Positions 5,253 to 22,246 of a DNA stretch of 31,792 bases are shown one piece after another (within the stretch, counting starts at the first letter, position 1; every line of letters starts with the position of its first letter). A program made the position numbers and the translations under genes. Location of the stretch: contig JBLFWS010000021.1 of the NCBI GenBank assembly GCA_047611865.1, forward strand, positions 1 to 31,792. The letters run 5' to 3'. This stretch comes from Chlamydiales bacterium (lineage in GTDB: Bacteria > Chlamydiota > Chlamydiia > Chlamydiales > JBDQID01). Below the pieces are notes generated by a model, which saw only the letters and a program-made list of their open reading frames with translations, was not told the origin of the DNA and did not search any database.

Positions 5253-6998
5253 ATGCCAAGTATGTTAATGTTCAGTCGCATTTACGACATGCATACGAGC
5301 TATAATACCTCTAGAAACGAACTTGAAAAATCAATGGCTCGGATAGCATCAGGAGATAAATTTGTCAAATTAGGTAGTGGGCTGGGCGGTAATCTTGCCA
5401 TGTCCGAAAGGTTCCGCTACAGAATAGCCTCAGCGAAACAGTCAACTCAAGCATTAGAACACGCTAGAACTTATGTCGACCAAGCTGATTTTATGGCATC
5501 TACAGTCATGAGTATCACTCAAAGAATGAGTGAATTAGCAGCCGTCTCTGTCAACCAAACTATCACAGATAATGAACGCGGTGCTACCAATGCTGAATTT
5601 CAAGCTCTCAAAGATGAGATTTCACAAATAACAAGAACTAGCAAAATGTTCGATCAACAAACCGTTGGCCGCGATGCTATTGTTTCCTTTGATGATAGAA
5701 CTTCTAATCCCACGACTGGTAACGAAGTCAAACAAATACACTTTTGGAACGCTCTTGGTGGAGACGAAGGCAAGATCACTAGAGATTTTGATAGCAACGC
5801 AAAAGATAGCCACAACAACTTTATCGGTTTCAACGTAGCTAATGACTTTACCATGAGCCGAGACGGCCGAAGTCTTTACTACTTAGGGACAACAGATTCT
5901 GCCGGAGCCACAGTAGCCCTAAAACGATATGACATAAAAAATGACGTCGTACAAACCAGTACGGATACCTACGCCGCAACAGATAAACTCTTTGTTGACG
6001 AAGAAGGAAGTGTTTTTATAAACGGTGCTGGAACATTATATGGACTAAATCAATCCACTCTTGATAGACAATCTACTGCTACAGGAATAACTAATATGTC
6101 AACAGGATTGGAATTCTCTGTTTACAAAGATCAGGTTACTTACCATACCACTGCCAATGAGATCGTAAGATATGACTTAAATACCTCTACACAAACAGCT
6201 GTGGCAGTTGCCAACCCCGCAGGTGTCGTCACCCCTCCTCCCGCCGCTGCAGCCAACAACTTCGGCTTAGCAGGTGTCGATCATGCATTTAGTGCCTCAG
6301 GACGATATGCTGCTGACGAAATCTCAGACGGAGTACTACGGGTCATCGACACTGTCACCGGCACAGGCACCACATTAACTATTACGGGTGGAACTGGCAC
6401 GGCAGATGCAGTAAAGAATTTTGCTTTTGATGAAGATAGCCGCAAAATCTATTACGTCGACACAACAAGAAATGAAATACGCTACCTCAATGTTAACACC
6501 GATAATAGCAATAACGTAAATTTATCAGTTGGAAGTACTGTGGTAGAGGGGAAGCGCGACATCACCTTAAATGGCCTTAACATGGGCGGATCTAATTTTG
6601 GTTCTATAGTACCATTTGCCCTTTCAGAGGACTCTGTTAGTGACATCGAATATGAAGCTGCAGACTTACGTCTCTATAATCTTGGTCTTTTAGAATCAAG
6701 TGTAGATACCCTAGCGAATGCAAACACTGCATTAGTAGACATGCAGACAGCAATAAGTAGAATATCTCAACAGCGAGCAAAACTTGGAGCTTATGGCAGC
6801 CGCTTCGAACATGTTTTGGATTCTCATCAATCCTACATACAATCTGTAATGGAAGGCGAAGCAGCCATACGCAATGTTGATATAGCAGAAGAAAGCACAA
6901 CTTTGGCTCAACTCACAATGAGTCAACAAGCATCTGCTTCAATGATTACTCAATTCAACAGTTCGCTACAGAGCATATTAATGCTCTTAAACGGATAA
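5253..6998 (+). CDS. fliC: flagellin, divergent paralog with predicted beta-propeller variable domain
   Basis: Flagellin N-domain (LEKSMARIASGDK...LAMSERFR...QRMSELAA...EFQALKDEI) and C-domain (RAKLGAYGSRFE...EAAIRNVDIAEES...LMLLNG). Confidence 0.9.
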   Translation: MPSMLMFSRIYDMHTSYNTSRNELEKSMARIASGDKFVKLGSGLGGNLAMSERFRYRIASAKQSTQALEHARTYVDQADFMASTVMSITQRMSELAAVSVNQTITDNERGATNAEFQALKDEISQITRTSKMFDQQTVGRDAIVSFDDRTSNPTTGNEVKQIHFWNALGGDEGKITRDFDSNAKDSHNNFIGFNVANDFTMSRDGRSLYYLGTTDSAGATVALKRYDIKNDVVQTSTDTYAATDKLFVDEEGSVFINGAGTLYGLNQSTLDRQSTATGITNMSTGLEFSVYKDQVTYHTTANEIVRYDLNTSTQTAVAVANPAGVVTPPPAAAANNFGLAGVDHAFSASGRYAADEISDGVLRVIDTVTGTGTTLTITGGTGTADAVKNFAFDEDSRKIYYVDTTRNEIRYLNVNTDNSNNVNLSVGSTVVEGKRDITLNGLNMGGSNFGSIVPFALSEDSVSDIEYEAADLRLYNLGLLESSVDTLANANTALVDMQTAISRISQQRAKLGAYGSRFEHVLDSHQSYIQSVMEGEAAIRNVDIAEESTTLAQLTMSQQASASMITQFNSSLQSILMLLNG

Positions 6999-7015: not shown

Positions 7016-7567
7016 ATGACTCATCCAGAACATCAGGGTAAAGAACAGCTCTCAAACAAAGAAATGCTAAAAAACTCTTTGCGACGTCTGGCTCCCGAAT
7101 ATCTCCGGGATCTAAGGTCCAAGGAGGGACTTAGCGGAACATTCCAGAAGCAAGTATCAAATATTGAAAGCACGCTGCAAAAATGTGAAAAGTCTATGAA
7201 AAGACTTGCTAGCGATTACCTCAAAGAACTTTCCACCTTTAATTCCACGGAGTCTCCTCTCGAAGCAACTGAGGCCCTGCAAAACTCTGAATCCATTTGG
7301 CGTGAAGAATCCAAAGTTATCCTCACACATAGCTTCAATGGTGACGAATCAGACTACTTAGAAAGATTACGTAAAAATGCTCTGCAAATCATGGAAAATA
7401 AACTAATCGAAAATTGCAGGGATAACTCAGCAAAAAATATCACCGCACGTGTTACTCTAAGCTCAGAAATCCTTGCTACTATGGATCAAATCTACGAAGG
7501 CCAAGGGTACCCTGGCAACTCACCCACAAGGAATAGGCTGCGCCGCATTGCTGAAAGCTTCATTTGA
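7016..7567 (+). CDS. hypothetical alpha-helical protein, probably co-transcribed with the flagellin
   Basis: 183-aa ORF 17 nt after the flagellin stop, with a GGAGGT Shine-Dalgarno and no intervening terminator. Its 3' end overlaps hemB by 48 nt. Confidence 0.7.
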   Translation: MTHPEHQGKEQLSNKEMLKNSLRRLAPEYLRDLRSKEGLSGTFQKQVSNIESTLQKCEKSMKRLASDYLKELSTFNSTESPLEATEALQNSESIWREESKVILTHSFNGDESDYLERLRKNALQIMENKLIENCRDNSAKNITARVTLSSEILATMDQIYEGQGYPGNSPTRNRLRRIAESFI

Positions 7568-12403: not shown

Positions 12404-12432
12404 AAAAAAGGCCAGTGAAGAATTCACTGGCC
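12404..12432 (-). terminator. intrinsic terminator of tandem flagellin 1
   Basis: mRNA GGCCAGUGAA-UUC-UUCACUGGCC followed by U6. Confidence 0.9.
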
Positions 12433-12438
12433 CCACTA

Positions 12439-12461
12439 ATCAGGTTTGAGGGGATAGGGTA
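12439..12461 (-). repeat. conserved flagellin 3'UTR element (copies at 14691-14713, 17398-17420, 19504-19525), complementary to the flagellin 5' leaders
   Basis: mRNA UACCCUAUCCCCUCAA(A)CCUGAU sits between the stop codon and terminator in all four tandem genes. Confidence 0.85.
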
Positions 12462-12471
12462 ATTAAATTTT

Positions 12472-14298
12472 TTAACCAGACAACAGTCCCAGAACCGCCT
12501 GTCTTGCAAGGTTTGCTTGTGACAAGACCGATATACTTGCCTGAGACATTATCTGTGATGAGACCAACTCGCTGGATTCTTTCGCAAAGTCTACATCTCT
12601 AAGACGGCTTTCCGCCTGAGCAATGTTGTTGTTATAACCATCGTTGGCTGAGAATACAAATCCCAGCCTACTTACTTGAGAACCTATTATCGCTCGCTGG
12701 TTAGCAACGATGTCAATAGCTTGAGAAGTCTCTTTAATAGCCTCTGAAGCACTCTCCAAGGTTAAAACATCGAGCGTACTAATTCCCAGTTTTGTGAGTC
12801 TAATATCACCAGTCGTGAATGATTGCGACATTCCGGAATCAGGTCCTACCTGAAATTCATAATTTGTCGCCGGACTTCCTCCCCCGACACTCAAGCCCAT
12901 GTTGTTCGCAGCTACGGCACTAGTCGGCGCTCCAAAATGTCCAGCATTCCCAAGACGCACTGTCCGAGTATCGGATATTTCCGGTACATCTCCAAAAGCA
13001 ATGGTCGCCTGGTTAATCGCATTCTGATCAGCTGTACCACCCGTATTAGTCCAGTACACCCTATTATTAGCGTCAAATTCTATCGATGCTATGGAGTTCG
13101 TCCTGGTACCTACTTGCAAGGAAGCTGACTGCCCTGAAAAAGCATTCACAACAACCATCGTACCTAACTTTGCAGCGTCTTCTTCCTCAAAGGCCAAATA
13201 TTGCCCGTCAGCAGAAATCGCCATGGCTTCTCCATTATCCAAGTCAAAAAGGGTATTCACATTTGCAATCAATACCTCTTTACTGGAAGTATCAAAAAGA
13301 CTTCTCTTAACATAGTTCAAGCTTGTTCCGGATCTGTCCACATAATACAAAAAGTCCCCGTGAACCGCGAACTCTGGCATGGCAGAAGCAGTCGTCGCAC
13401 CTCCACCCCATGCGTTGGTAGCGCCTACACCACCAGCATCGAGTGTCATATCCGTCACATTTAAAAGATTGATATCGTAGCCTTCTGTACCAGCATCTGT
13501 TGTTGCATTCGTCGGGTTCGAAACCCAAATACGACCTACATCATCCATAACTAATCTCGGCTGTAATGTTGCCGATGCAGCACCATCAAAAGCTAGATCC
13601 ACTTTTGTGAGGGTGTTACTATTAAGCTCCAGTTTCATTACTGTTTTTCGAGCTGAAATCGAAGTTCCCGCATCATTCTGAGCAATATATATTAGTTGTT
13701 TTCCATCGTCGCTAAAAAGATAATCTCCCACGGAACCATCAGTCGCATTTTCAAATGCAAATTCCAATCCATTTGCTGAAGTATTTCCCGCCCTCATATC
13801 GGTTCCCAATGTTCTTTCATCCGAACCATCGGACTGAGAAAAGACAATCCTCTTAAGGACAGAGTCCCATACTGAAACCGCTGTCTTACCATTAATTTGT
13901 AACCCATTATATTTACCAGCTTCAGAAATACGTGCTACTTCCGTTTTAAGCTGCTGAAATTCGAGATTAAGATTTACCCTGTCGTCTTGGCTCTTTGAAC
14001 CATCACTTGCTCCAACAGCCAGCTCACCCATACGATCAAGTATGTTATGAACTTCCTGCATCCAGGAGTCGGTGGACTGAAGCATGTTCATCGCGTTTTG
14101 TATGACACGACCTGCTTCCTCACTGTTTCTTATTTGAGAACGAAATCTTTCTGAAATACCCAAGTCCGCCGGAGCGTCCCCTGGAGATGTAAAACGAGAG
14201 CCAAGCGACAATCGTCCCATAGCCGTTTGCAAGCGACTATTTTGACGATTATAGTCGCTAATATACATCTGAAAAGTTGCATTGTTAGCGATAATCAT
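12472..14298 (-). CDS. fliC: flagellin (tandem copy 1) with predicted beta-propeller variable domain
   Basis: N-domain RLSLGSRFTSPGDAPADLGISERFRSQIR...DRMGELAVGASDGS...EFQQLKTEV; C-domain FQVG...ESRLRDVDFAKES...LSQAN...LGLL. Confidence 0.95.
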   Translation of the reverse strand: MIIANNATFQMYISDYNRQNSRLQTAMGRLSLGSRFTSPGDAPADLGISERFRSQIRNSEEAGRVIQNAMNMLQSTDSWMQEVHNILDRMGELAVGASDGSKSQDDRVNLNLEFQQLKTEVARISEAGKYNGLQINGKTAVSVWDSVLKRIVFSQSDGSDERTLGTDMRAGNTSANGLEFAFENATDGSVGDYLFSDDGKQLIYIAQNDAGTSISARKTVMKLELNSNTLTKVDLAFDGAASATLQPRLVMDDVGRIWVSNPTNATTDAGTEGYDINLLNVTDMTLDAGGVGATNAWGGGATTASAMPEFAVHGDFLYYVDRSGTSLNYVKRSLFDTSSKEVLIANVNTLFDLDNGEAMAISADGQYLAFEEEDAAKLGTMVVVNAFSGQSASLQVGTRTNSIASIEFDANNRVYWTNTGGTADQNAINQATIAFGDVPEISDTRTVRLGNAGHFGAPTSAVAANNMGLSVGGGSPATNYEFQVGPDSGMSQSFTTGDIRLTKLGISTLDVLTLESASEAIKETSQAIDIVANQRAIIGSQVSRLGFVFSANDGYNNNIAQAESRLRDVDFAKESSELVSSQIMSQASISVLSQANLARQAVLGLLSG

Positions 14299-14458
14299 TA
14301 ACTTCCTCCATGAAAATTACAAATGCTTTGCTTTGCCCAAACAATCCTTGTTTGAACTCCACTATCCAACAAAACATACCCACATATCCCCTGAAGGAAT
14401 CTTTCCTACCACCTGATGCGTATGACTCCCTATATTCAGTCATACTTTCTTTCCTCAA
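14299..14458 (-). promoter_or_regulatory. structured GGA-rich flagellin 5' leader with CsrA-type hairpin (14338-14354)
   Basis: Hairpins GUAUGACU...AGUCAUAC and CAAACA-AGGAU-UGUUUG, multiple GGA motifs, and a GGAGGA SD. Confidence 0.7.
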
Positions 14459-14463
14459 TCTAA

Positions 14464-14491
14464 GTATCGGAACTCTACGAAGCGTACTGAA
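14464..14491 (-). promoter_or_regulatory. sigma28-type promoter, flagellin 1
   Basis: TTCAGTAC-N12-TCCGATAC. Confidence 0.75.
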
Positions 14492-14520
14492 GAAAAAACA
14501 TCTCTTTCCTAAAAATAAAA

Positions 14521-14645
14521 AACAGAGAGAATTCCACAGGTCTCACTAATCCTATTGAAAGGGTGAGCTACGAGCCACATATACCCTCAAGACATTATCT
14601 ACGAAGAAACCAGCCCTCTTGATTCTTTCGCCATATCCATGCCTT
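14521..14645 (-). pseudogene. decayed flagellin 3'-end relic with degenerate 3'UTR/terminator
   Basis: The minus strand reads MDMAKESRGLVSS*IMS* versus intact VDFAKESSELVSSQIMSQ. It is followed by GATTAGTGAGACCTGTGGAATTCTCTCTG-TTTTT, which resembles the flagellin terminator region. Confidence 0.7.
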
Positions 14646-14654
14646 CGCATAAAT

Positions 14655-14684
14655 AAAAAAAGGCCAGTGAAGAATTCACTGGCC
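14655..14684 (-). terminator. intrinsic terminator of flagellin 2
   Basis: GGCCAGUGAA-UUC-UUCACUGGCC followed by U7. Confidence 0.9.
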
Positions 14685-14724
14685 CCACTAATCAGGTTTG
14701 AGGGGATAGGGTAATTAATTATTT

Positions 14725-16551
14725 TTAACCAGACAACAGCCCCAGAACAGCCTGTCTTGCAAGGTTTGCCTGTGACAAGACCGATATACTTGCCTGAGAC
14801 ATAATCTGCGATGAGACCAGCTCGCTGGATTCTTTCGCAAAGTCTACATCTCTAAGACGGCTTTCCGCCTGAGCAATGTTGTTGTTATAACCATCGTTGG
14901 CTGAGAATACAAATCCCAGCCTACTTACTTGAGAACCAATAATCGCTCGCTGGTTAGCAACGATGTCAATAGCATGAGAAGTCTCTTTAATAGCCTCTGA
15001 AGCACTCTCCAAGGTTAAAACATCGAGCGTACTAATTCCCAGTTTTGTGAGTCTAATATCACCAGTCGTGAATGATTGCGACATTCCGGAATCAGGTCCT
15101 ACCTGAAATTCATAATTTGTCGCCGGACTTCCTCCCCCGACACTCAAGCCCATGTTGTTCGCAGCTACGGCACTAGTCGGCGCTCCAAAATGTCCAGCAT
15201 TCCCAAGACGCACTGTCCGAGTATCGGATATTTCCGGTACATCTCCAAAAGCAATGGTCGCCTGGTTAATCGCATTCTGATCAGCTGTACCACCCGTATT
15301 AGTCCAGTACACCCTATTATTAGCGTCAAATTCTATCGATGCTATGGAGTTCGTCCTGGTACCTACTTGCAAGGAAGCTGACTGCCCTGAAAAAGCATTC
15401 ACAACAACCATCGTACCTAACTTTGCAGCGTCTTCTTCCTCAAAGGCCAAATATTGCCCGTCAGCAGAAATCGCCATGGCTTCTCCATTATCCAAGTCAA
15501 AAAGGGTATTCACATTTGCAATCAATACCTCTTTACTGGAAGTATCAAAAAGACTTCTCTTAACATAGTTCAAGCTTGTTCCGGATCTGTCCACATAATA
15601 CAAAAAGTCCCCGTGAACCGCGAACTCTGGCATGGCAGAAGCAGTCGTCGCACCTCCACCCCATGCGTTGGTAGCGCCTACACCACCAGCATCGAGTGTC
15701 ATATCCGTCACATTTAAAAGATTGATATCGTAGCCTTCTGTACCAGCATCTGTTGTTGCATTCGTCGGGTTCGAAACCCAAATACGACCTACATCATCCA
15801 TAACTAATCTCGGCTGTAATGTTGCCGATGCAGCACCATCAAAAGCTAGATCCACTTTTGTGAGGGTGTTACTATTAAGCTCCAGTTTCATTACTGTTTT
15901 TCGAGCTGAAATCGAAGTTCCCGCATCATTCTGAGCAATATATATTAGTTGTTTTCCATCGTCGCTAAAAAGATAATCTCCCACGGAACCATCAGTCGCA
16001 TTTTCAAATGCAAATTCCAATCCATTTGCTGAAGTATTTCCCGCCCTCATATCGGTTCCCAATGTTCTTTCATCCGAACCATCGGACTGAGAAAAGACAA
16101 TCCTCTTAAGGACAGAGTCCCATACTGAAACCGCTGTCTTACCATTAATTTGTAACCCATTATATTTACCAGCTTCAGAAATACGTGCTACTTCCGTTTT
16201 AAGCTGCTGAAATTCGAGATTAAGATTTACCCTGTCGTCTTGGCTCTTTGAACCATCACTTGCTCCAACAGCCAGCTCACCCATACGATCAAGTATGTTA
16301 TGAACTTCCTGCATCCAGGAATCCGTGGACTGAAGCATATTCATCGCGTTTTGTATGACACGACCTGCTTCCTCACTGTTTCTTATTTGAGAACGAAATC
16401 TTTCTGAAATACCCAAGTCAGCCGGAGCATCCCCTGGAGATGTAAAACGAGAGCCAAGCGACAACCGTCCCATAGCTGTTTGCAAGCGACTATTTTGACG
16501 ATTATAGTCGCTAATATACATCTGAAAAGTTGCATTATTAGCGATAATCAT
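14725..16551 (-). CDS. fliC: flagellin (tandem copy 2)
   Basis: 608 aa; differs from copy 1 at one visible residue (KETSQA versus KETSHA). Confidence 0.95.
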   Translation of the reverse strand: MIIANNATFQMYISDYNRQNSRLQTAMGRLSLGSRFTSPGDAPADLGISERFRSQIRNSEEAGRVIQNAMNMLQSTDSWMQEVHNILDRMGELAVGASDGSKSQDDRVNLNLEFQQLKTEVARISEAGKYNGLQINGKTAVSVWDSVLKRIVFSQSDGSDERTLGTDMRAGNTSANGLEFAFENATDGSVGDYLFSDDGKQLIYIAQNDAGTSISARKTVMKLELNSNTLTKVDLAFDGAASATLQPRLVMDDVGRIWVSNPTNATTDAGTEGYDINLLNVTDMTLDAGGVGATNAWGGGATTASAMPEFAVHGDFLYYVDRSGTSLNYVKRSLFDTSSKEVLIANVNTLFDLDNGEAMAISADGQYLAFEEEDAAKLGTMVVVNAFSGQSASLQVGTRTNSIASIEFDANNRVYWTNTGGTADQNAINQATIAFGDVPEISDTRTVRLGNAGHFGAPTSAVAANNMGLSVGGGSPATNYEFQVGPDSGMSQSFTTGDIRLTKLGISTLDVLTLESASEAIKETSHAIDIVANQRAIIGSQVSRLGFVFSANDGYNNNIAQAESRLRDVDFAKESSELVSSQIMSQASISVLSQANLARQAVLGLLSG

Positions 16552-16712
16552 TAACTTCCTCCATGGGATTACAAATGTTTTGCATCATCCAAACAATCCA
16601 TGTTTAGATTCCACTATCCAACAAAACATACCCACTTATCCCCTCAAGGACCTTAGTCCTACCCACCTGATCCGTATGGCCCCCTATATTTAGCCATACT
16701 TTCTTTCCTCAT
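16552..16712 (-). promoter_or_regulatory. structured GGA-rich 5' leader, flagellin 2 (CsrA-type hairpin 16588-16608)
   Basis: Hairpins GUAUGGC...GCCAUAC, AGGAC-UAAG-GUCCU and UCUAAACA-UGGAU-UGUUUGGA. Confidence 0.7.
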
Positions 16713-16717
16713 TATAA

Positions 16718-16745
16718 GTATCGGAACTTAATGCAATTCACTGAA
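16718..16745 (-). promoter_or_regulatory. sigma28-type promoter, flagellin 2
   Basis: TTCAGTGA-N12-TCCGATAC. Confidence 0.72.
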
Positions 16746-16942
16746 GAAAAACCTGCTTCGGATGAAAAATAAAGGCATGGTTCAATTCAAGGTAACACTT
16801 TTTCCTAAGCCTATAGGCTGTCTGACCAAAATTTCGGATGACTTAAGAGAAGCGAAGGAATTTGTGCTTATGTAACTGAGTCATGCCCGATCTTCTAAAA
16901 ATGCAGGGTATCAAAATTGATAAACGTTTTGTTCTTTGCTTA

Positions 16943-17219
16943 TATTGGAGAGGTGCCACTACCGTGGCACAGAATCTTTTTTTCCTATCCCCGAGCTAAA
17001 GCACGGGGCTATCAAGAGGGAAGACCACTACCGTGGCCTTAAGAAAAAATCACCTATACACCCCTATCCAACAAAGAAATGAAATTATCCCATGAATAAG
17101 CCGGCTATGGATAACTCCTAATAGCCACGGTAGTGCCTCTGTCTCCAAATAGCCCTGTGCTTTAGCTCAGGGGATGAACGATACACATTTCGTGCCACGG
17201 TAGTGGCACCTCTCCAATA
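16943..17219. repeat. inverted REP-like doublet (REPIN/BIME-like element)
   Basis: Two inverted ~95-bp units (16943-17037 and 17124-17219). There is a perfect 28-bp outer inverted repeat TATTGGAGAGGTGCCACTACCGTGGCAC, with internal palindromes GTGCCAC-TACC-GTGGCAC and CCCCG-AGCTAAAGCA-CGGGG. Confidence 0.85.
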
Positions 17220-17361
17220 CTTCAAGAACAGGTAGCTTAAGCATAGCTTTATTTTTCTCGATTTAGCCTTCGCAATTTTGGCAATTAGACATATTCTAAC
17301 GGCGTGATCCCACAACCCTTTTTGTTACCTAAAAAAGCCTCTTTCTGAACCATCCCAAAAT

Positions 17362-17391
17362 AAAAAAAGGCCAGTGAAGAATTCACTGGCC
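17362..17391 (-). terminator. intrinsic terminator of flagellin 3
   Basis: GGCCAGUGAA-UUC-UUCACUGGCC followed by U7. Confidence 0.9.
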
Positions 17392-17430
17392 CGACTAATC
17401 AGGTTTGAGGGGATAGGGTAATTAATTATT

Positions 17431-19257
17431 TTAACCAGACAATAATCCCAGAACAGCCTGTCTTGCAAGGTTGGCTTGCGACAAGACCGATATACTCGCC
17501 TGAGACATGATCTGCGATGAGACCAGCTCACTGGATTCTTTCGCAAAGTCCACATCTCTAAGTCGGCTTTCTGCCTGAGCAATGTTGTTGTTATAACCAT
17601 CGTTTGCTGAGAATACAAATCCCAGCCTACTTACTTGAGAACCAATAATCGCTCGCTGGTTAGCAACGATGTCAATAGCTTCAGAAGTCTCTTTAATAGC
17701 GTCTGAAGCACTCTCCAAGGTTAAAACATCGAGCGTACTAATCCCCAATTTTGTGAGTCTAATATCACCAGTCGTAAATGATTGCGACATACCAGAGTCC
17801 GGTCCTACCTGAAACTCATAGTTCGTTGCCGGACTTCCTCCACCAACACTCAAGCCCATGTTATTCGCAGCTACTGCACTCGTTGGCGCTCCAAAATGCC
17901 CAGCATTTCCGAGACGTACTGTCCGAGTGTCGGATATTTCCGGAACGTCTCCAAAGGCAATGGTCGCTTGGTTAATCGCGTTTTGATCTGCAGTACCACC
18001 CGTATTGGTCCAGTACACTCTGTTATTAGCGTCGAACTCAATCGAGGCTATGGAGTTCGTTCTGGTACCTACCTGTAAAGAAGCTGATTGCCCTGAAAAG
18101 GCATTCACAACTATCATCGTACCTAACTTTGCAGCGTCTTCTTCCTCAAAGGCTAAATACTGCCCGTCAGCAGAGATCGCCATGGCTTCTCCATTATCTA
18201 AATCAAAAAGGGTGTTAACATTTGCAATCAGCACCTCTTTACTGGAAGTATCAAAAAGGCTCCTCTTAACATAGTTTAAACTTGCTCCAGATCTGTCCAC
18301 ATAATACATAAAGTCACCGTGAACTGCGAACTCTGGCATGGCAGATGCAGTCGTCGCACCACCACCCCAGGCGTTGGTTGCTCCAACACCTCCAGCGTCA
18401 AGTGTCATATCCGTCACATTTAAAAGGTTGATGTCGTATCCTTCTGTTCCAGCTGACGTTGTTGCATTAGTCGGGTTCGAAACCCAAATACGTCCTATAT
18501 CATCCATAACAAGTCTAGGCTGTAGTGTTGCAGATGCATTTCCATCAAAAGCTAGATCTACTTTTGTGAGGGTGTTACTATTAAGCTCCAACTTCATTAC
18601 CGTTTTCCGAGCCGAAATCGAAGTGCCCGCATCATTTTGAGCTATGTATACTAACTGCTTCCCATCATCACTAAAGAGATAATCTCCTACAGATCCATCA
18701 GTAGCATTTTCAAAGGCGAATTCTAATCCGTTTGCTGAAGTATTTCCCGCCCTCATGTCGGTTCCCAAAGTTCTCTCATCTGTGCCATCGGACTGAGAAA
18801 AAATAATGCGCTTAAGAACAGAGTCCCACACTGAAACAGCTGTTTTACCATTAATTTGTAACCCATTATACTTACCCGCTTCAGAAATACGTGCTATTTC
18901 CGTTTTGAGCTGCTGAAATTCGAGGTTCAGGTTTACCCTGTCGTCTTGGCTCTTTGAACCATCGCTCGCTCCAACAGCCAGCTCACCCATACGATCAAGT
19001 ATATTGTGAACTTCCTGCATCCAGGAGTCAGTGGACTGAAGCATGTTCATAGCGTTTTGTATAACACGCCCTGCTTCCTCACTATTTCTAATTTGAGCAC
19101 GAAATCTTTCTGAAATACCCAGGTCAGCCGGAGCATCACCTGGAGATGTAAATCGAGAACCTAGCGATAACCGTCCCATGGCCGTTTGTAGTCGGCTATT
19201 TTGACGGTTGTAATCGCTGATATACATCTGAAAAGTTGCATTGTTAGCGATGATCAT
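17431..19257 (-). CDS. fliC: flagellin (tandem copy 3)
   Basis: 608 aa, near-identical protein to copies 1 and 2, with many synonymous differences. Confidence 0.95.
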   Translation of the reverse strand: MIIANNATFQMYISDYNRQNSRLQTAMGRLSLGSRFTSPGDAPADLGISERFRAQIRNSEEAGRVIQNAMNMLQSTDSWMQEVHNILDRMGELAVGASDGSKSQDDRVNLNLEFQQLKTEIARISEAGKYNGLQINGKTAVSVWDSVLKRIIFSQSDGTDERTLGTDMRAGNTSANGLEFAFENATDGSVGDYLFSDDGKQLVYIAQNDAGTSISARKTVMKLELNSNTLTKVDLAFDGNASATLQPRLVMDDIGRIWVSNPTNATTSAGTEGYDINLLNVTDMTLDAGGVGATNAWGGGATTASAMPEFAVHGDFMYYVDRSGASLNYVKRSLFDTSSKEVLIANVNTLFDLDNGEAMAISADGQYLAFEEEDAAKLGTMIVVNAFSGQSASLQVGTRTNSIASIEFDANNRVYWTNTGGTADQNAINQATIAFGDVPEISDTRTVRLGNAGHFGAPTSAVAANNMGLSVGGGSPATNYEFQVGPDSGMSQSFTTGDIRLTKLGISTLDVLTLESASDAIKETSEAIDIVANQRAIIGSQVSRLGFVFSANDGYNNNIAQAESRLRDVDFAKESSELVSSQIMSQASISVLSQANLARQAVLGLLSG

Positions 19258-19414
19258 TAATTAATCTCCTCCATAAACATGACTATTGTCTACGCAGATT
19301 CAAACATCCATTGTTTGAAAATACCATTTAACAATTGCCCTATATCCCTTGAAGGTAACTTTCCCACCTGACCTGTATGACCCCCTATATTTGGCCACAC
19401 TTTCTTTCCTTCAG
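19258..19414 (-). promoter_or_regulatory. structured GGA-rich 5' leader, flagellin 3 (CsrA-type hairpin 19299-19319)
   Basis: Perfect hairpin UUCAAACA-AUGGA-UGUUUGAA; GUGUGGCC...GGUCAUAC stem with G-U pairs. Confidence 0.72.
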
Positions 19415-19419
19415 TGTAT

Positions 19420-19447
19420 GTATCGGAACTAGGCAACTCGAACTTGA
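19420..19447 (-). promoter_or_regulatory. sigma28-type promoter, flagellin 3
   Basis: TCAAGTTC-N12-TCCGATAC. Confidence 0.78.
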
Positions 19448-19462
19448 GAAAAAAGTATTCAG

Positions 19463-19499
19463 AAAAAAAAGAGAGGTCAGTGAAGAACTCACTGACCTC
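19463..19499 (-). terminator. intrinsic terminator of flagellin 4
   Basis: GAGGUCAGUGA-GUUCU-UCACUGACCUC-UC-U8, with a compensatory change relative to the other three terminators. Confidence 0.9.
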
Positions 19500-19533
19500 A
19501 CTAATCAGGTTGAGGGGATAGGGTATGTTAAAA

Positions 19534-21360
19534 TTAACTCTGCAGAAGTCCCAGAACAGCCTGTCTCGCAAGGTTCGCTTGCGACAAAACCGATATACTT
19601 GCCTGAGACATAATCTGCGAAGAAACCAGCTCGCTGGATTCTTTTGCAAAGTCCACATCTCTAAGACGGCTTTCCGCCTGAGCGATGTTATTATTGTAAC
19701 CATCGTTCGCTGAGAATACAAATCCCAGCCTACTAACTTGAGAACCGATTATCGCTCGCTGCTGAGCAACGATATCAATTGCTTCAGATGTTTCCTTAAT
19801 CGCTTCTGAAGCACTCTCCAATGTTAAAACATCAATTGTACTAATTCCCAATTTTGTTAAGCGAATATCACCCGTCGTAAATGACTGCGCCATACCAGAG
19901 TCCGGTCCTACCTGAAACTCATAGTTTGTAGCAGGGCTTCCTCCACCAACACTTAAGCCCATGTTATTTGCAGCAACAGCACTGTTGATAGCACCAAAGT
20001 GACCGGCATTGCCAAGTCGTACCGATCGAGTGTTGGATATTTCCGGAATGTCACCAAAAGCAATAGTTGCTTGATTGACAGCATTCTGATCCGCTGTACC
20101 ACCCGTATTGGTCCAATACACCCTGTTATTTGCATCAAATTCTATCGCAGCTATTGAGTTAGTCCTGGTTCCCACCTGCAAGGAAGCTGACTGCCCTGAA
20201 AATGCATTAACCACAACTAAAGTCCCAACCTTTGCGGCATCCTCTTCCTCAAAGGCCAAATACTGCCCATCAGAAGAAATGGACACAGCTTCTCCACTGT
20301 CCAAATCAAAAAGAGTATCAACATTCGCAATAAGCACTTCTTTACTAGAGGTGTCAAAAAGGCTTCTCTTTACATAGTTTAGATTCGTCCCGGACCTGTC
20401 TACATAATACATGAAGTCCCCGTGAACCGCGAACTCGGGCATAGCTGATGCGGTCGTTGCGCCTCCACCCCATGCATTTGAAGCTGCTACTCCACCAGCA
20501 TCTAATGTCATGTCCGTTACATTTAAAAGGTTGATATCGTAGCCTTCTGTTCCAGCTGATGTTGCTGCATTTGCCGGATTCGAAACCCAAATACGTCCTA
20601 CATCATCCATTACTAATCTTGGTTGTAAAGTCGCCGATGCGGCTCCATCGAATTGGAGATCCACTTTTGTAAGAGTGTTGCTATTAAGCTCCAGCTTCAT
20701 TACAGTTTTCCGAGCAGAAATACTCGTTCCAGCATCATCTTGGGCAACATATACCAGCTGTTTTCCATCGTCAGAAAAAAGGAAGTCTCCCACGGACCCG
20801 TCAGTAGCATTTTCAAATGCAAATTCTAATCCGTTCGCAGAAGTATTTCCCGCCCTCATATCAGTTCCCAAACTCCTTTCATCTGTACCGTCCGACTGAG
20901 AAAAAATAATGCGCTTAAGAACAGAGTCCCATACCGAAACTGCTGTTTTACCATTAATTTGTAGCCCATTATATTTACCAGCTTCCGAAATACGTGCTAT
21001 TTCCGTTTTGAGCTGCTGAAATTCGAGGTTCAGGTTTACCCTGTCGTCTTGGCTCTTTGAACCATCACTTGCTCCAACAGCCAATTCTCCCATACGGTCA
21101 AGTATGTTGTGAACTTCCTGCATCCAGGAATCCGTGGACTGAAGCATGTTCATAGCGTTTTGTATAACACGCCCTGCTTCCTCACTGTTTCTGATTTGAG
21201 AACGAAATCTTTCTGAAATACCTAAATCCGCTGGTGCATCACCAGGCGAGGTGAATCGCGACCCTAACGATAATCGTCCCATAGACGTTTGTAATCGACT
21301 ATTCTGACGATTATAATCACTGATATACATCTGAAAAGTTGCATTATTGGCAATAATCAT
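19534..21360 (-). CDS. fliC: flagellin (tandem copy 4, most divergent of the array)
   Basis: The true start is MIIANN at 21360 (GGAGGA SD), giving 608 aa like the paralogs; the protein ends LGLLQS. Confidence 0.95.
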   Translation of the reverse strand: MIIANNATFQMYISDYNRQNSRLQTSMGRLSLGSRFTSPGDAPADLGISERFRSQIRNSEEAGRVIQNAMNMLQSTDSWMQEVHNILDRMGELAVGASDGSKSQDDRVNLNLEFQQLKTEIARISEAGKYNGLQINGKTAVSVWDSVLKRIIFSQSDGTDERSLGTDMRAGNTSANGLEFAFENATDGSVGDFLFSDDGKQLVYVAQDDAGTSISARKTVMKLELNSNTLTKVDLQFDGAASATLQPRLVMDDVGRIWVSNPANAATSAGTEGYDINLLNVTDMTLDAGGVAASNAWGGGATTASAMPEFAVHGDFMYYVDRSGTNLNYVKRSLFDTSSKEVLIANVDTLFDLDSGEAVSISSDGQYLAFEEEDAAKVGTLVVVNAFSGQSASLQVGTRTNSIAAIEFDANNRVYWTNTGGTADQNAVNQATIAFGDIPEISNTRSVRLGNAGHFGAINSAVAANNMGLSVGGGSPATNYEFQVGPDSGMAQSFTTGDIRLTKLGISTIDVLTLESASEAIKETSEAIDIVAQQRAIIGSQVSRLGFVFSANDGYNNNIAQAESRLRDVDFAKESSELVSSQIMSQASISVLSQANLARQAVLGLLQS

Positions 21361-21521
21361 TGACTTCCTCCGTGAATAATACTGTTGATTTCCTATCCAA
21401 ACATCCTTGTTAGATAGGTTGATTCCAAACAACAGCCCCGAGCATCCCCTCAAGGAACTGTAACTCTTTCCATCTAGCTCTTTCCAATAAAGGAAAGACT
21501 CCTAAATGAAATTACTTCCAA
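21361..21521 (-). promoter_or_regulatory. GGA-rich 5' leader, flagellin 4 (CsrA-type hairpin 21392-21418)
   Basis: CCUAUCUAACA-AGGA-UGUUUGGAUAGG contains ACAAGGAUGU, matching the core of the CsrA consensus RUACARGGAUGU. Confidence 0.72.
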
Positions 21522-21526
21522 AATGG

Positions 21527-21554
21527 ATATCGGAAATCCTCAGTATGTACTTGA
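21527..21554 (-). promoter_or_regulatory. sigma28-type promoter, flagellin 4
   Basis: TCAAGTAC-N12-TCCGATAT. Confidence 0.78.
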
Positions 21555-21793: not shown

Positions 21794-22246
21794 TTACGCT
21801 TCGACTTCCTCAAGGTTATCGATACGATATCTAACAGAATATTTCTGATGATTTTGCAAAATGACCTGCTTACCCAAGCGTTTTCTCCAATTAATCACCA
21901 CAGGGCCAACTAAGTTTGCAGTAATTCCTTCCTCTGGATCAGAACTAATATTTACTATGCCCAAAATCAATACATCTTCTTCATTTTCAATTTGCAATGC
22001 TTTGACATCATCGTCGCCTATATCAGGACGATATTTAGGATAAACGAGAAAGGGATCAATCGTAACAAATGCAAGATTTGGAGTAGACACTGCCTGCAAC
22101 CAAAGAAAGGGTGCTTCCTCCTCATTGGAGATAATTACAAATTCTTTTGCAGACTCGAACGCCGGGAGCCCATCTGGAAAATGAATGCTCTTGTGGTGCT
22201 GCTTAGCTTTTTTGTCTAAGACATCGATTTTCTCTGACTGCATCAC
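21794..22246 (-). CDS. fliW: flagellar assembly factor FliW
   Basis: IHFPDGLPAFE, PFLWLQAV, LAFVTIDPF, ITANLVGPVVIN, GKQVIL. Confidence 0.95.
   Translation of the reverse strand: MMQSEKIDVLDKKAKQHHKSIHFPDGLPAFESAKEFVIISNEEEAPFLWLQAVSTPNLAFVTIDPFLVYPKYRPDIGDDDVKALQIENEEDVLILGIVNISSDPEEGITANLVGPVVINWRKRLGKQVILQNHQKYSVRYRIDNLEEVEA

Follow-up and report, generated by a model that had tools for sequence, protein, structure and literature searches.

Probable RNA pairing between a 3′UTR box and the leaders of four tandem flagellin genes in an uncultured chlamydia, a proposed control of flagellin translation

The flagellin gene hag of Bacillus subtilis is governed by a partner switch between FliW, CsrA and flagellin, a system that is not known to have a 3′UTR component. 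The icaR mRNA of Staphylococcus aureus carries a 3′UTR of several hundred nt. According to the report on icaR, the C-rich 3′UTR motif UCCCCUG is complementary to a purine-rich, ribosome-binding-linked segment of the mRNA’s own 5′UTR, where it pairs with the Shine-Dalgarno (SD) site itself and represses (PMC3868564). [quoted passage not shown] FliX of Escherichia coli is an sRNA processed from the 3′UTR of the sigma-28-dependent fliC mRNA; it is described as working with Hfq and pairing inside coding sequences, and it also contacts the flagellin mRNA, as RIL-seq chimeras linking the 3′ end of fliC to its 5′ end show (PMC10578931).

Here we analysed a tandem array of four flagellin genes (c1 to c4) in one uncultured flagellated chlamydia with a genome of 3.59 Mb that is 95.5% complete. 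As described for icaR (PMC3868564), the flagellin 3′UTRs contain a C-rich motif, UAUCCCCUC, that is complementary to a purine-rich leader segment. [quoted passage not shown] Whereas the SD site itself is the reported target in icaR, the flagellin target lies 65–75 nt upstream on the anti-SD strand, and by prediction pairing there exposes the SD site. At ~75 nt, the flagellin 3′UTR also differs from the several hundred nt of icaR. With hbs (PMC5737220) the array would share long-range leader-trailer pairing of one abundant mRNA, overlapping a functional site of a leader that is itself folded; the hbs pairing is tied to RNase Y cleavage, and that of the flagellin mRNA is predicted from sequence. 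The box and terminator at the 3′ end of the flagellin mRNA are laid out as in FliX (PMC10578931), but the box target is in the leader and not in the coding sequence, and sequence similarity between the two is not to be expected. A Pfam search of the 95.5%-complete genome gave no match to Hfq. As in the FliW-CsrA-hag system, fliW lies beside flagellin, csrA is present, and a GGA-loop hairpin accompanies a GGA-containing SD site, judged from sequence and predicted folds. The proposed pairing may add a further variant to icaR-, hbs- or FliX-type control, a placement we make tentatively and with a little less than even confidence.

Flagellin array, 3′UTR box and terminator

In the window, i.e. the whole stretch of 31,792 nt that was analysed, the four genes with Flagellin_N and Flagellin_C domains are located on the minus strand at 12472..14298 (c1, 608 aa), 14725–16551 (c2), 17431–19257 (c3) and 19534–21360 (c4), separated by spacers of 276 to 879 nt. 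The gene fliW (21794..22246, minus strand; Pfam FliW, E = 8e-40) is found directly upstream of the array. A putative sigma-28-type −10 box, TTCCGATAC, precedes c1 at 14464..14472, and further boxes are located at 16718–16726, 19420–19428 and 21527–21535, all on the minus strand. The window contains five such matches against 0.4 expected, all five of them upstream of flagellin genes. The flagellin mRNA is ~2.06 kb long. An Rfam scan of the window yielded no family match above the gathering score in the leaders or 3′UTRs; its sole match, HgcC in the c3–c2 spacer, scored 20.5 bits where the gathering score is 50.

A 23-nt element between stop codon and terminator had been noticed in all four genes, and its sequences and coordinates were verified in each of them. 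This box is an exact 23-mer on the minus strand in c1 (UACCCUAUCCCCUCAAACCUGAU, 12439..12461), c2 (14691..14713) and c3 (17398..17420), while in c4 (19504..19525, minus strand) one A is deleted. The sequence TACCCTATCCCCTCAAACCTGAT has three exact copies in the 3.59-Mb genome, all of them on the minus strand in the 3′UTRs of c1–c3. The box is identical in three copies and differs by one indel in the fourth, despite a c2–c4 third-codon identity of 0.63. Intrinsic terminators with stems of 11–12 bp followed by runs of 6–8 T are located on the minus strand at 12408..12434 (c1), 14660–14686 (c2), 17368–17392 (c3) and 19473–19499 (c4). Compensatory changes were found at 4 of the 12 stem pairs across this genome, the related genome G001 and the related locus L067, and box and terminator form a conserved unit.

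An orthologue of 71% identity retains the box, as do two metagenome contigs in which synonymous sites are close to saturated. In G001, 19 of 20 positions are conserved at a third-codon identity of 0.37–0.41; it is also conserved in the related locus L066 and more diverged in L067. These comparisons indicate that the box is under purifying selection.

Complementarity between box and leaders

The initial annotation had described reverse complements of the box in the flagellin leaders, and this complementarity is confirmed. The c2 target (16629..16671, minus strand) consists of AUCAGGU, a 17-nt hairpin, UUGAGGGGAUA, AGU and GGGUA, and its three collinear blocks (7+11+5) pair Watson-Crick with 23/23 box positions, as perfectly as had been claimed. 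In c1 (14377..14417, minus strand; AUCAGGU, hairpin, UUCAGGGGAUA, UGU and GGGUA), 22 of the 23 positions pair, with one C·C mismatch. The c3 target (19333..19372, minus strand) is the weakest, with ~20/23 positions including one G·U, plus four further A-U pairs. In c4 (21431..21453, minus strand) the central block UUGAGGGGAUG plus GGG is retained; the central 11 positions pair (10 Watson-Crick, 1 G·U) together with short flanks, giving ~17/23 overall. The leader core UCCUUGAGGGGAU is the same in c2 and c4, though the whole leaders are only 62% alike. The paired block does cover a GGA motif, and the hairpin inserted between blocks A and B is substantiated by a compensatory exchange of A-U to C-G between c1 (AGGAA/UUCCU) and c2 (AGGAC/GUCCU). 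The argument from G-U substitutions as a sign of RNA pairing was only partly right, because just two of the six leader changes relative to c2 keep a G·U pair and the other four break the pair. Covariation between box and leader did not materialize: none of the leader changes is made good by a change in the box, and no box is connected to its own leader by a compensatory change.

Each leader paired with its own 3′UTR better than with shuffled controls, strongly in c2, moderately in c1 and c4 and weakly in c3 (RNAduplex with 200 shuffles, z = −3.0, −6.1, −2.1 and −3.2 for c1–c4). Cofold ddG values were −19.4, −24.0, −16.4 and −17.3 versus about −11 ± 3 in shuffles, i.e. better by 5–12 kcal/mol in 4/4 copies, and a fraction of at most 0.02 of the shuffles reached a value as low as the native one. 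Smith-Waterman alignments on DNA gave p = 0.009, <0.001, 0.003 and 0.198 for c1–c4, the best alignment of c3 covering the SD site and the AUG and not the site noted earlier. Unlike in icaR, the target is not the SD site itself but the anti-SD strand; the alternative SD/AUG alignment exists in c3 only. Among 2594 upstream regions genome-wide, the c2 leader ranked first and the c1 leader fourth for the box; one of the best 10 non-flagellin regions belonged to the FliP family (flagellar/other type III export), the other nine to neither.

The duplex survived competition by local folds in silico, since the full-length 2.06-kb minimum free energy (MFE) folds contain it in 4/4 copies, with 20, 31, 41 and 14 5′–3′ pairs in c1–c4; the target-box pairing probabilities in the cofold ensemble were 0.69, 0.92, 0.18 and 0.96. 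Stricter tests weaken c1, c3 and c4. In a whole-mRNA scan with a shortened 26-nt core, p was 0.86, 0.03, 0.96 and 0.04 for c1–c4, thus not significant for c1 and c3. Composition-matched box shuffles still formed 0–26 5′–3′ pairs in full-length MFE folds, the native MFE gain over them was large in c2 alone (11–17 kcal/mol), and one c3 box shuffle folded better than native c3. Moreover, the four copies are paralogues and therefore represent one evolutionary event, not four independent ones.

Relatives and rival explanations

Conservation of the leader match in relatives, to which the initial annotation had looked, was not found, in part an outcome that it had named as refuting: the match is absent in the closest ones (RNAduplex z = +0.46 in G001 and −0.88 in L066), where leader-3′UTR cofolds were no better than shuffles (fractions 0.67 and 0.40) and Smith-Waterman alignments gave p = 0.90 and 0.76. 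Across related flagellin genes, 0/11 had a Smith-Waterman p < 0.05 for a leader match, and full-length MFE folds of nine related flagellin mRNAs contained 0–15 5′–3′ pairs. The rest of the 68%-complete G001 yielded no extended box complement, and no conserved box target was found in G001, L066 or L067, though the box is conserved there. Since the box persists in G001 and L066 although the complement is missing there, whatever role is conserved in it cannot depend on the extended leader match. The extended match itself appears to be specific to the lineage of this genome.

A real, probably functional and lineage-specific RNA pairing of leader and box, in cis or in trans, is in our estimate quite possible, at somewhat below an even chance. 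The box could instead have a job independent of the leader, in 3′-end stability or processing, as a protein site or as a short C-rich seed for another partner, with the leader match as a by-product of ancestry and opposite composition (pyrimidine-rich 3′UTR, GGA-rich leader). We regard this as doubtful but worth serious thought: G001, L066 and, in more diverged form, L067 carry the box although their leaders lack the complement, long-range folds still join shuffled boxes to the leader, GGA is enriched at p < 0.05 in 9/18 chlamydial flagellin leaders, and TCCC occurs in 4/10 flagellin 3′UTRs outside the family (three genes without a detected terminator being left out) versus 8.3% of 2314 post-stop segments of this genome. 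Composition alone, however, fails to explain the perfect collinear 7+11+5 match of c2 (p < 0.001; rank 1/2594) and its landing on the anti-SD strand, and searches of this genome and G001 returned no alternative partner. That the match is a functionless relic of an inverted duplication, carried along in the four-copy amplification and decaying in c1, c3 and c4, is unlikely. The complementarity does drop from 23/23 in c2 to 22 in c1, ~20 in c3 and ~17 in c4 with uncompensated mismatches, and the leader match was found in this genome alone, but box and leader core stand as conserved islands amid diverged flanks, and a neutral 23-mer would stay unchanged c2–c4 with a probability of roughly 0.63^23, as estimated from the third-codon identity of 0.63.

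In the box-leader matrix every box pairs with every leader equally well; an end-to-end clamp, a 3′ fragment acting in trans and pairing in read-through RNA look alike by sequence. The last of these would confine the pairing to the box of gene N and the leader of gene N-1, ~130–700 nt downstream, silencing or processing read-through transcripts. Such neighbour pairs are as stable as the own pairs (c1 leader/c2 box −27.5, c2 leader/c3 box −34.4), but with strong terminators (11–12-bp stems, 6–8 T), spacers varying from 276 to 879 nt and no such partner for the leader of c4, the first of the array, or for the box of c1, its last, we consider this very improbable. Hardly any credence is left for the arms being DNA inverted repeats through which a recombinase inverts a gene or a terminator-promoter segment between neighbouring genes, which would give flagellar phase variation. 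Flagellar invertible switches are known in other bacteria, and in formal terms the arms bracket every coding sequence as well as every intergenic terminator-promoter region. Yet the leader arm is broken by 17 nt and 3 nt, no recombinase family was detected among the 24 window ORFs scanned, and a contig of run X1 is identical over 14263–14685, with no strand-switch joint among the contigs listed, which can miss rare forms.

Leader folding and a possible role in translation

The SD sites GGAGGA are located on the minus strand at 14304..14309 (c1), 16557–16562 (c2), 19267–19272 (c3) and 21366–21371 (c4). In predicted folds of the leader alone, the SD site pairs with UUCCUU directly 5′ of the target block, which itself sits 65–75 nt 5′ of GGAGGA. 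RNAalifold of the four leaders pairs columns 73–78 with 164–169 and 82–84 with 158–160. The modelled structure is thus a conserved helix predicted to sequester the SD site, with the box target as its 5′ strand. The predicted probability of an unpaired SD site was 0.02, 0.21, 0.17 and 0.51 for the leaders of c1–c4 alone and 0.50, 0.53, 0.28 and 0.79 with the 3′UTR added; in c1 and c3 the maxima obtained with shuffled 3′UTRs equal or exceed the native values.

RNA pairing between box and leader probably serves to adjust flagellin translation. The C-rich box before each flagellin terminator would be a conserved riboregulatory module, and in this genome its RNA would pair with a G-rich stretch in flagellin leaders whose transcription sigma-28 would drive, UCCUU-GAGGGGAU being the 5′ strand of the putative SD-sequestering helix. 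Once the box occupies blocks A and B, the small hairpin between them may take up the anti-SD bases, changing the accessibility of the SD site and of CsrA-readable GGA motifs; the SD site is predicted to open. In cis, the box could act on its own finished 2.06-kb mRNA; in trans, whole mRNAs or a stable fragment of box and terminator could act on all four paralogues. The sequences themselves show the complementarity, a conserved box, a conserved SD helix and a compensated hairpin; we infer that pairing takes place in the cell, that it would activate rather than repress, and that it may interplay with CsrA and FliW. More specifically, flagellated chlamydiae of this family, apparently without Hfq, might use box and terminator as an ‘anti-anti-SD’ RNA that here opens the self-sequestered, CsrA-readable leaders of all four paralogues, which is a rather speculative proposal and somewhat unlikely as it stands. 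If true, completed or accumulated flagellin transcripts would license flagellin translation, an RNA layer would be added to the FliW-CsrA partner switch, and a riboregulator would for the first time have been proposed for a chlamydial flagellum.

A link of CsrA to the flagellin leaders is plausible because fliW adjoins the array and csrA is present elsewhere in the genome (C269:2896-3051, 83 bits). GGA is enriched in the leaders of c1 (p = 0.021), c2 (p = 0.013) and c4 (p < 0.0005), and enrichment was not significant in that of c3 (p = 0.21). According to predicted folds, the leaders of c1–c4 have both a GGA in a hairpin loop and a GGA in the SD site. The hairpin of c2 (16588..16608, minus strand), delineated by MFE folds and alignment, is also predicted in c1, c3 and c4, and is a candidate CsrA site ~35 nt before the SD site.

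Organisation of the flagellin array

The four tandem flagellin genes are located on the minus strand at 21360–19534 (c4, first in order), 19257–17431 (c3), 16551–14725 (c2) and 14298–12472 (c1, last), encode 608 aa each, and are followed by a MutY-like gene. They come after fliW (21794–22246, minus strand). The same strand of the window holds flgF, flgG, flgA, flgH, flgI, a rod-binding (FlgJ-like) gene, flgN and flgK, and, between flgK and fliW, a FlgL-like flagellin-fold gene (316 aa). A UPF0242 protein is also encoded in the window. The nearest relatives of the flagellins in named genomes carry the labels Chlamydiales, Waddliaceae and Simkania.

The motif TTCCGATAY, a putative −10 box of sigma-28-type promoters, occurs five times in the window versus 0.4 expected, 160–175 nt upstream of each of c1 to c4 and, closer in (~45 nt), upstream of a fifth, divergent flagellin-fold gene (5253–6998, plus strand, 581 aa). 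The latter is preceded by a TTCCGATAC promoter motif of its own, its leader is short, and 17 nt after the gene an ORF of 183 aa without a Pfam family is found (7016–7567, plus strand). The csrA gene is situated on a separate contig (C269, 2887–3201), at the end of a row of fliP/fliQ/fliR-like export genes, and its product has a C-terminal extension of ~50 residues. RNase III and RNase E/G are encoded; a search of the genome, which is 95.5% complete, revealed no Hfq.

The 3′UTR box and its counterpart in the leaders

Every one of the four genes carries a C-rich box downstream of its stop codon and ahead of a strong terminator. The 3.59-Mb genome contains just three exact copies of the 23-nt sequence UACCCUAUCCCCUCAAACCUGAU, those of c1 to c3, and the c4 box is the same sequence minus one A. 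The initial annotation had proposed that this element pairs with the leader of its own mRNA, and all of its coordinates and quoted sequences agree with the DNA. In the c2 leader, the target consists of AUCAGGU (block A), a 17-nt hairpin, UUGAGGGGAUA (block B), AGU and GGGUA (block C), and pairs with 23 of the 23 box positions. The c1 leader differs by a single C·C mismatch, the c3 leader has one G·U, three mismatches and four additional A-U pairs, and the c4 leader has retained the central block, with 10 Watson-Crick pairs and one G·U, as well as CAG and GGG. At the fifth flagellin gene neither box nor leader target is present.

G-U substitutions had been regarded as a sign of RNA pairing. Relative to the c2 leader, two substitutions indeed keep the pairing as G·U, but four break pairs, and among c1 to c4 no box change compensates a leader substitution. 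The hairpin between blocks A and B shows a compensatory change between c1 and c2, AGGAA/UUCCU versus AGGAC/GUCCU, which supports an RNA fold with the blocks flanking a formed hairpin. Presentation of the box itself in a hairpin loop (AUUAAUUA/UGAUUAGU) was rejected: among individual folds, just those of c2 and c3 show it, and it is missing from the RNAalifold structure.

Compared with 200 shuffles, which here as in all these analyses keep mononucleotide composition only, the RNAduplex energies of each leader with its own 3′UTR were 2.1–6.1 sd lower, and the cofold gains for c1 to c4 were −19.4, −24.0, −16.4 and −17.3 kcal/mol versus −11 ± 3 in 100 shuffles. Smith-Waterman alignment on DNA yielded p = 0.009, <0.001, 0.003 and 0.198, respectively, with the best c3 alignment in the Shine-Dalgarno (SD)/AUG region and not at the site annotated initially. 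Of the 2594 upstream regions ranked across the genome, the leader of c2 pairs best with the box (−37.4; next −29.6) and that of c1 comes fourth. When the 2.06-kb mRNAs are folded at full length, the minimum free energy structure of each copy includes the long-range duplex (20, 31, 41 and 14 pairs for c1 to c4), compared with 0–15 long-range pairs in nine related chlamydial flagellin mRNAs.

The proposed pairing thus beats the shuffles in energy, but when a truncated core was scanned against the whole mRNA, only c2 and c4 reached significance (p = 0.86, 0.03, 0.96 and 0.04 for c1 to c4), and shuffled boxes pair too: composition-matched ones still reach 0–26 end-to-end pairs, the native fold is clearly better only in c2 (11–17 kcal/mol), and one c3 box shuffle folds better than native c3. 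These results indicate that base composition, with pyrimidines in the trailer against abundant GGA in the leader, accounts for much of the affinity. As an exact match, the complementarity convinces chiefly in c2 and c1, and the four copies, being paralogues, count as one event.

Four other 11-mer complements in the genome were discarded as antisense to ORFs or lying at a contig end, two of the latter being the same repeated sequence, and a 13-nt match on contig C253, located between genes for Bro-N and DUF4328 proteins, runs in the orientation of the box and not of a target. Nine of the ten best non-flagellin predicted targets are neither flagellar nor related to type III export; one belongs to the FliP family. 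In the relative G001, of which 68% of the genome is assembled, no target with up to three mismatches was found beyond its own box; there were two weak forward matches versus six in the reversed control, and a site at +552 in the coding sequence was neither significant (p = 0.17) nor present in the genome studied here.

Leader fold and possible modes of action

RNAalifold analysis of the four leaders yielded three elements. A 5′ stem-loop of 8 bp (14421–14445 in c1, 16675–16699 in c2, 19375–19400 in c3) starts ~13 nt after the predicted transcription start, has the loop (A/G)AAUAUAGGG and three pairs with compensatory changes among the copies, and may act as a 5′ stabiliser. A predicted hairpin with GGA in its loop is located ~35 nt before the SD site. 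In a predicted long-range helix, UUCCUU and GGG of the target pair with the SD sequence GGAGGA and the pyrimidines preceding it, making the box a mimic of the SD-proximal strand. After adding the 3′UTR in silico, target-box pairing probabilities for c1 to c4 were 0.69, 0.92, 0.18 and 0.96, and the mean unpaired probability of the SD site shifted from 0.02, 0.21, 0.17 and 0.51 in the leader alone to 0.50, 0.53, 0.28 and 0.79; shuffled controls averaged 0.20–0.26, with maxima overlapping the native value for c1 and c3.

From the helix and the shift in SD accessibility, we lean towards a leader with two states. When closed, it would have its SD site bound by the anti-SD strand; when open, it would have the anti-SD bases placed within the small covarying hairpin, with blocks A, B and C bound by the box. 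The direction of such an effect is predicted to be activation, but the gene content would permit an icaR-like outcome, with RNase III cleaving the duplex, just as well. Enrichment of GGA motifs was seen in the leaders of c1, c2 and c4 and, across chlamydial flagellin genes, in 9 of the 18 leaders analysed. Because of this enrichment and the presence of fliW and csrA, control of the flagellin leaders by CsrA is likely on general grounds, and CsrA might compete with the box for the leader.

Few bacterial mRNAs are known to have interacting ends. Every box pairs every leader about equally, the boxes are, but for the A missing in c4, identical whereas the leaders vary, and box plus terminator form a self-contained conserved unit; an end-to-end clamp therefore fits no better than a trans-capable RNA. 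One flagellin mRNA, fliC of E. coli, is known as the source of a regulatory RNA, FliX, released from its 3′UTR (PMC10578931), to which the flagellin box with its terminator is comparable as a trans-capable RNA. The alternative model is represented by the icaR (PMC3868564) and hbs (PMC5737220) mRNAs, whose two ends interact as end-to-end clamps. Both 5′-3′ UTR pairing and 3′UTR-derived regulators are known kinds, and the flagellin box constitutes no new category.

Conservation and competing explanations

Between c2 and c4, 37% of third codon positions differ and the leaders are only 62% alike; the box differs by one indel and the leader core UCCUUGAGGGGAU is identical. G001, the only other species in the GTDB family, has a single flagellin gene followed by mutY (71% protein identity, third-position identity 0.37–0.41) and retains AAUCCCCCUCAACCUGAUUAG plus the terminator. 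Two metagenome contigs retain CCCUAUCCCUCAACCUGAU (L066, 70% identical) and the more diverged UUUCCCCAAACCUGGAUUGG (L067, 75% identical), and 4 of 12 pairs of the terminator stem are compensatory. A survey of 401 genomes of the order located the box pattern beside flagellin only in the genome studied here and in G001; the eight matches outside the family (seven genomes) include none beside a flagellin gene or terminator and look like chance, six lying inside sense ORFs and the reversed control giving six. These comparisons show the box to be under purifying selection in this family.

The complementarity did not follow the box: in neither G001 nor L066 does the leader match its own box, and among 11 more distant chlamydial flagellin genes none showed own-end complementarity at p<0.05 by Smith-Waterman and one did by duplex z. 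The observation in the initial annotation was confirmed, but its interpretation is supported only in part. Two layers appear defensible at the sequence level: an old, family-conserved flagellin 3′UTR box under selection, and, specific to the lineage studied here, its extended complement on the predicted anti-SD strand of the leaders.

A terminator stem, GGCCAG(C/T)G...C(G/A)CTGGCC, present in c1 (12408–12434) and likewise in the other copies, recurs after flagellin genes at six chlamydial loci (L038, L043, L048, L051, L070, L071) whose flagellins are only 45–60% identical and whose 3′UTRs are otherwise unalignable. A TCCC/TCCCC tract just before the terminator occurs in 4 of 10 flagellin genes outside the family (L039, L045, L049, L051), against a background of 8.3% of post-stop segments in the present genome, with kinship and base composition uncontrolled. 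C-rich flagellin trailers facing GGA-rich leaders may be a wider habit.

Functional RNA pairing of box and leader is a tentative reading to which we give somewhat less than an even chance. That the box has a leader-independent role and the complementarity is incidental, we consider somewhat less likely; the box kept in relatives with non-complementary leaders is what it would lead one to expect. Smaller odds fall to a neutral relic, to pairing in read-through transcripts only and to a DNA inversion switch. For the last, inverted arms exist, but with interruptions; a scan of 24 window ORFs turned up no recombinase family, and contigs of four ice-metagenome runs, fragmented by the paralogues, contained no inversion joint. 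Such a switch is therefore unlikely. An ice-metagenome joint going back 1817 agrees with the tandem flagellin array.

No study of flagellar regulation is known from the phylum of chlamydiae. A literature search for flagellin UTR pairing with CsrA/FliW returned nothing, a weak negative because primed spellings of UTR escape matching, and the main text of a paper on flagella in marine chlamydiae makes no mention of flagellin, FliW or CsrA. If true, control by a 3′UTR box in these uncultured, flagellated chlamydiae would reach this phylum, would operate in an organism apparently without Hfq, and would touch a leader also bearing CsrA-FliW hallmarks. Box and target provide a concrete and testable site pair with natural variants graded in strength (c2, c1, c4, c3).

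The c3-c2 spacer measures 879 nt versus 276 and 426 nt elsewhere because of a ~280-bp MITE-like insert (16943–17219), a nested inverted-repeat pair with 50 nt at 80% and 49 nt at 78% complementarity. Rfam gave nothing above threshold on the window, the sole match, HgcC, lying far below threshold inside this insert. One contig of the ice-metagenome run X1 matches the flagellin start-codon region (loose end at 14299) and continues upstream into a different leader; it would represent either another flagellin copy or a related strain, absent from the window. Over the central ~1200 nt, the coding sequences of c1 and c2 do not differ at all; the 8 and 9 differences they have are confined to regions near the two ends. 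The leaders of c1 and c2 are 84% alike, a pattern that suggests recent gene conversion or duplication confined to the gene body.
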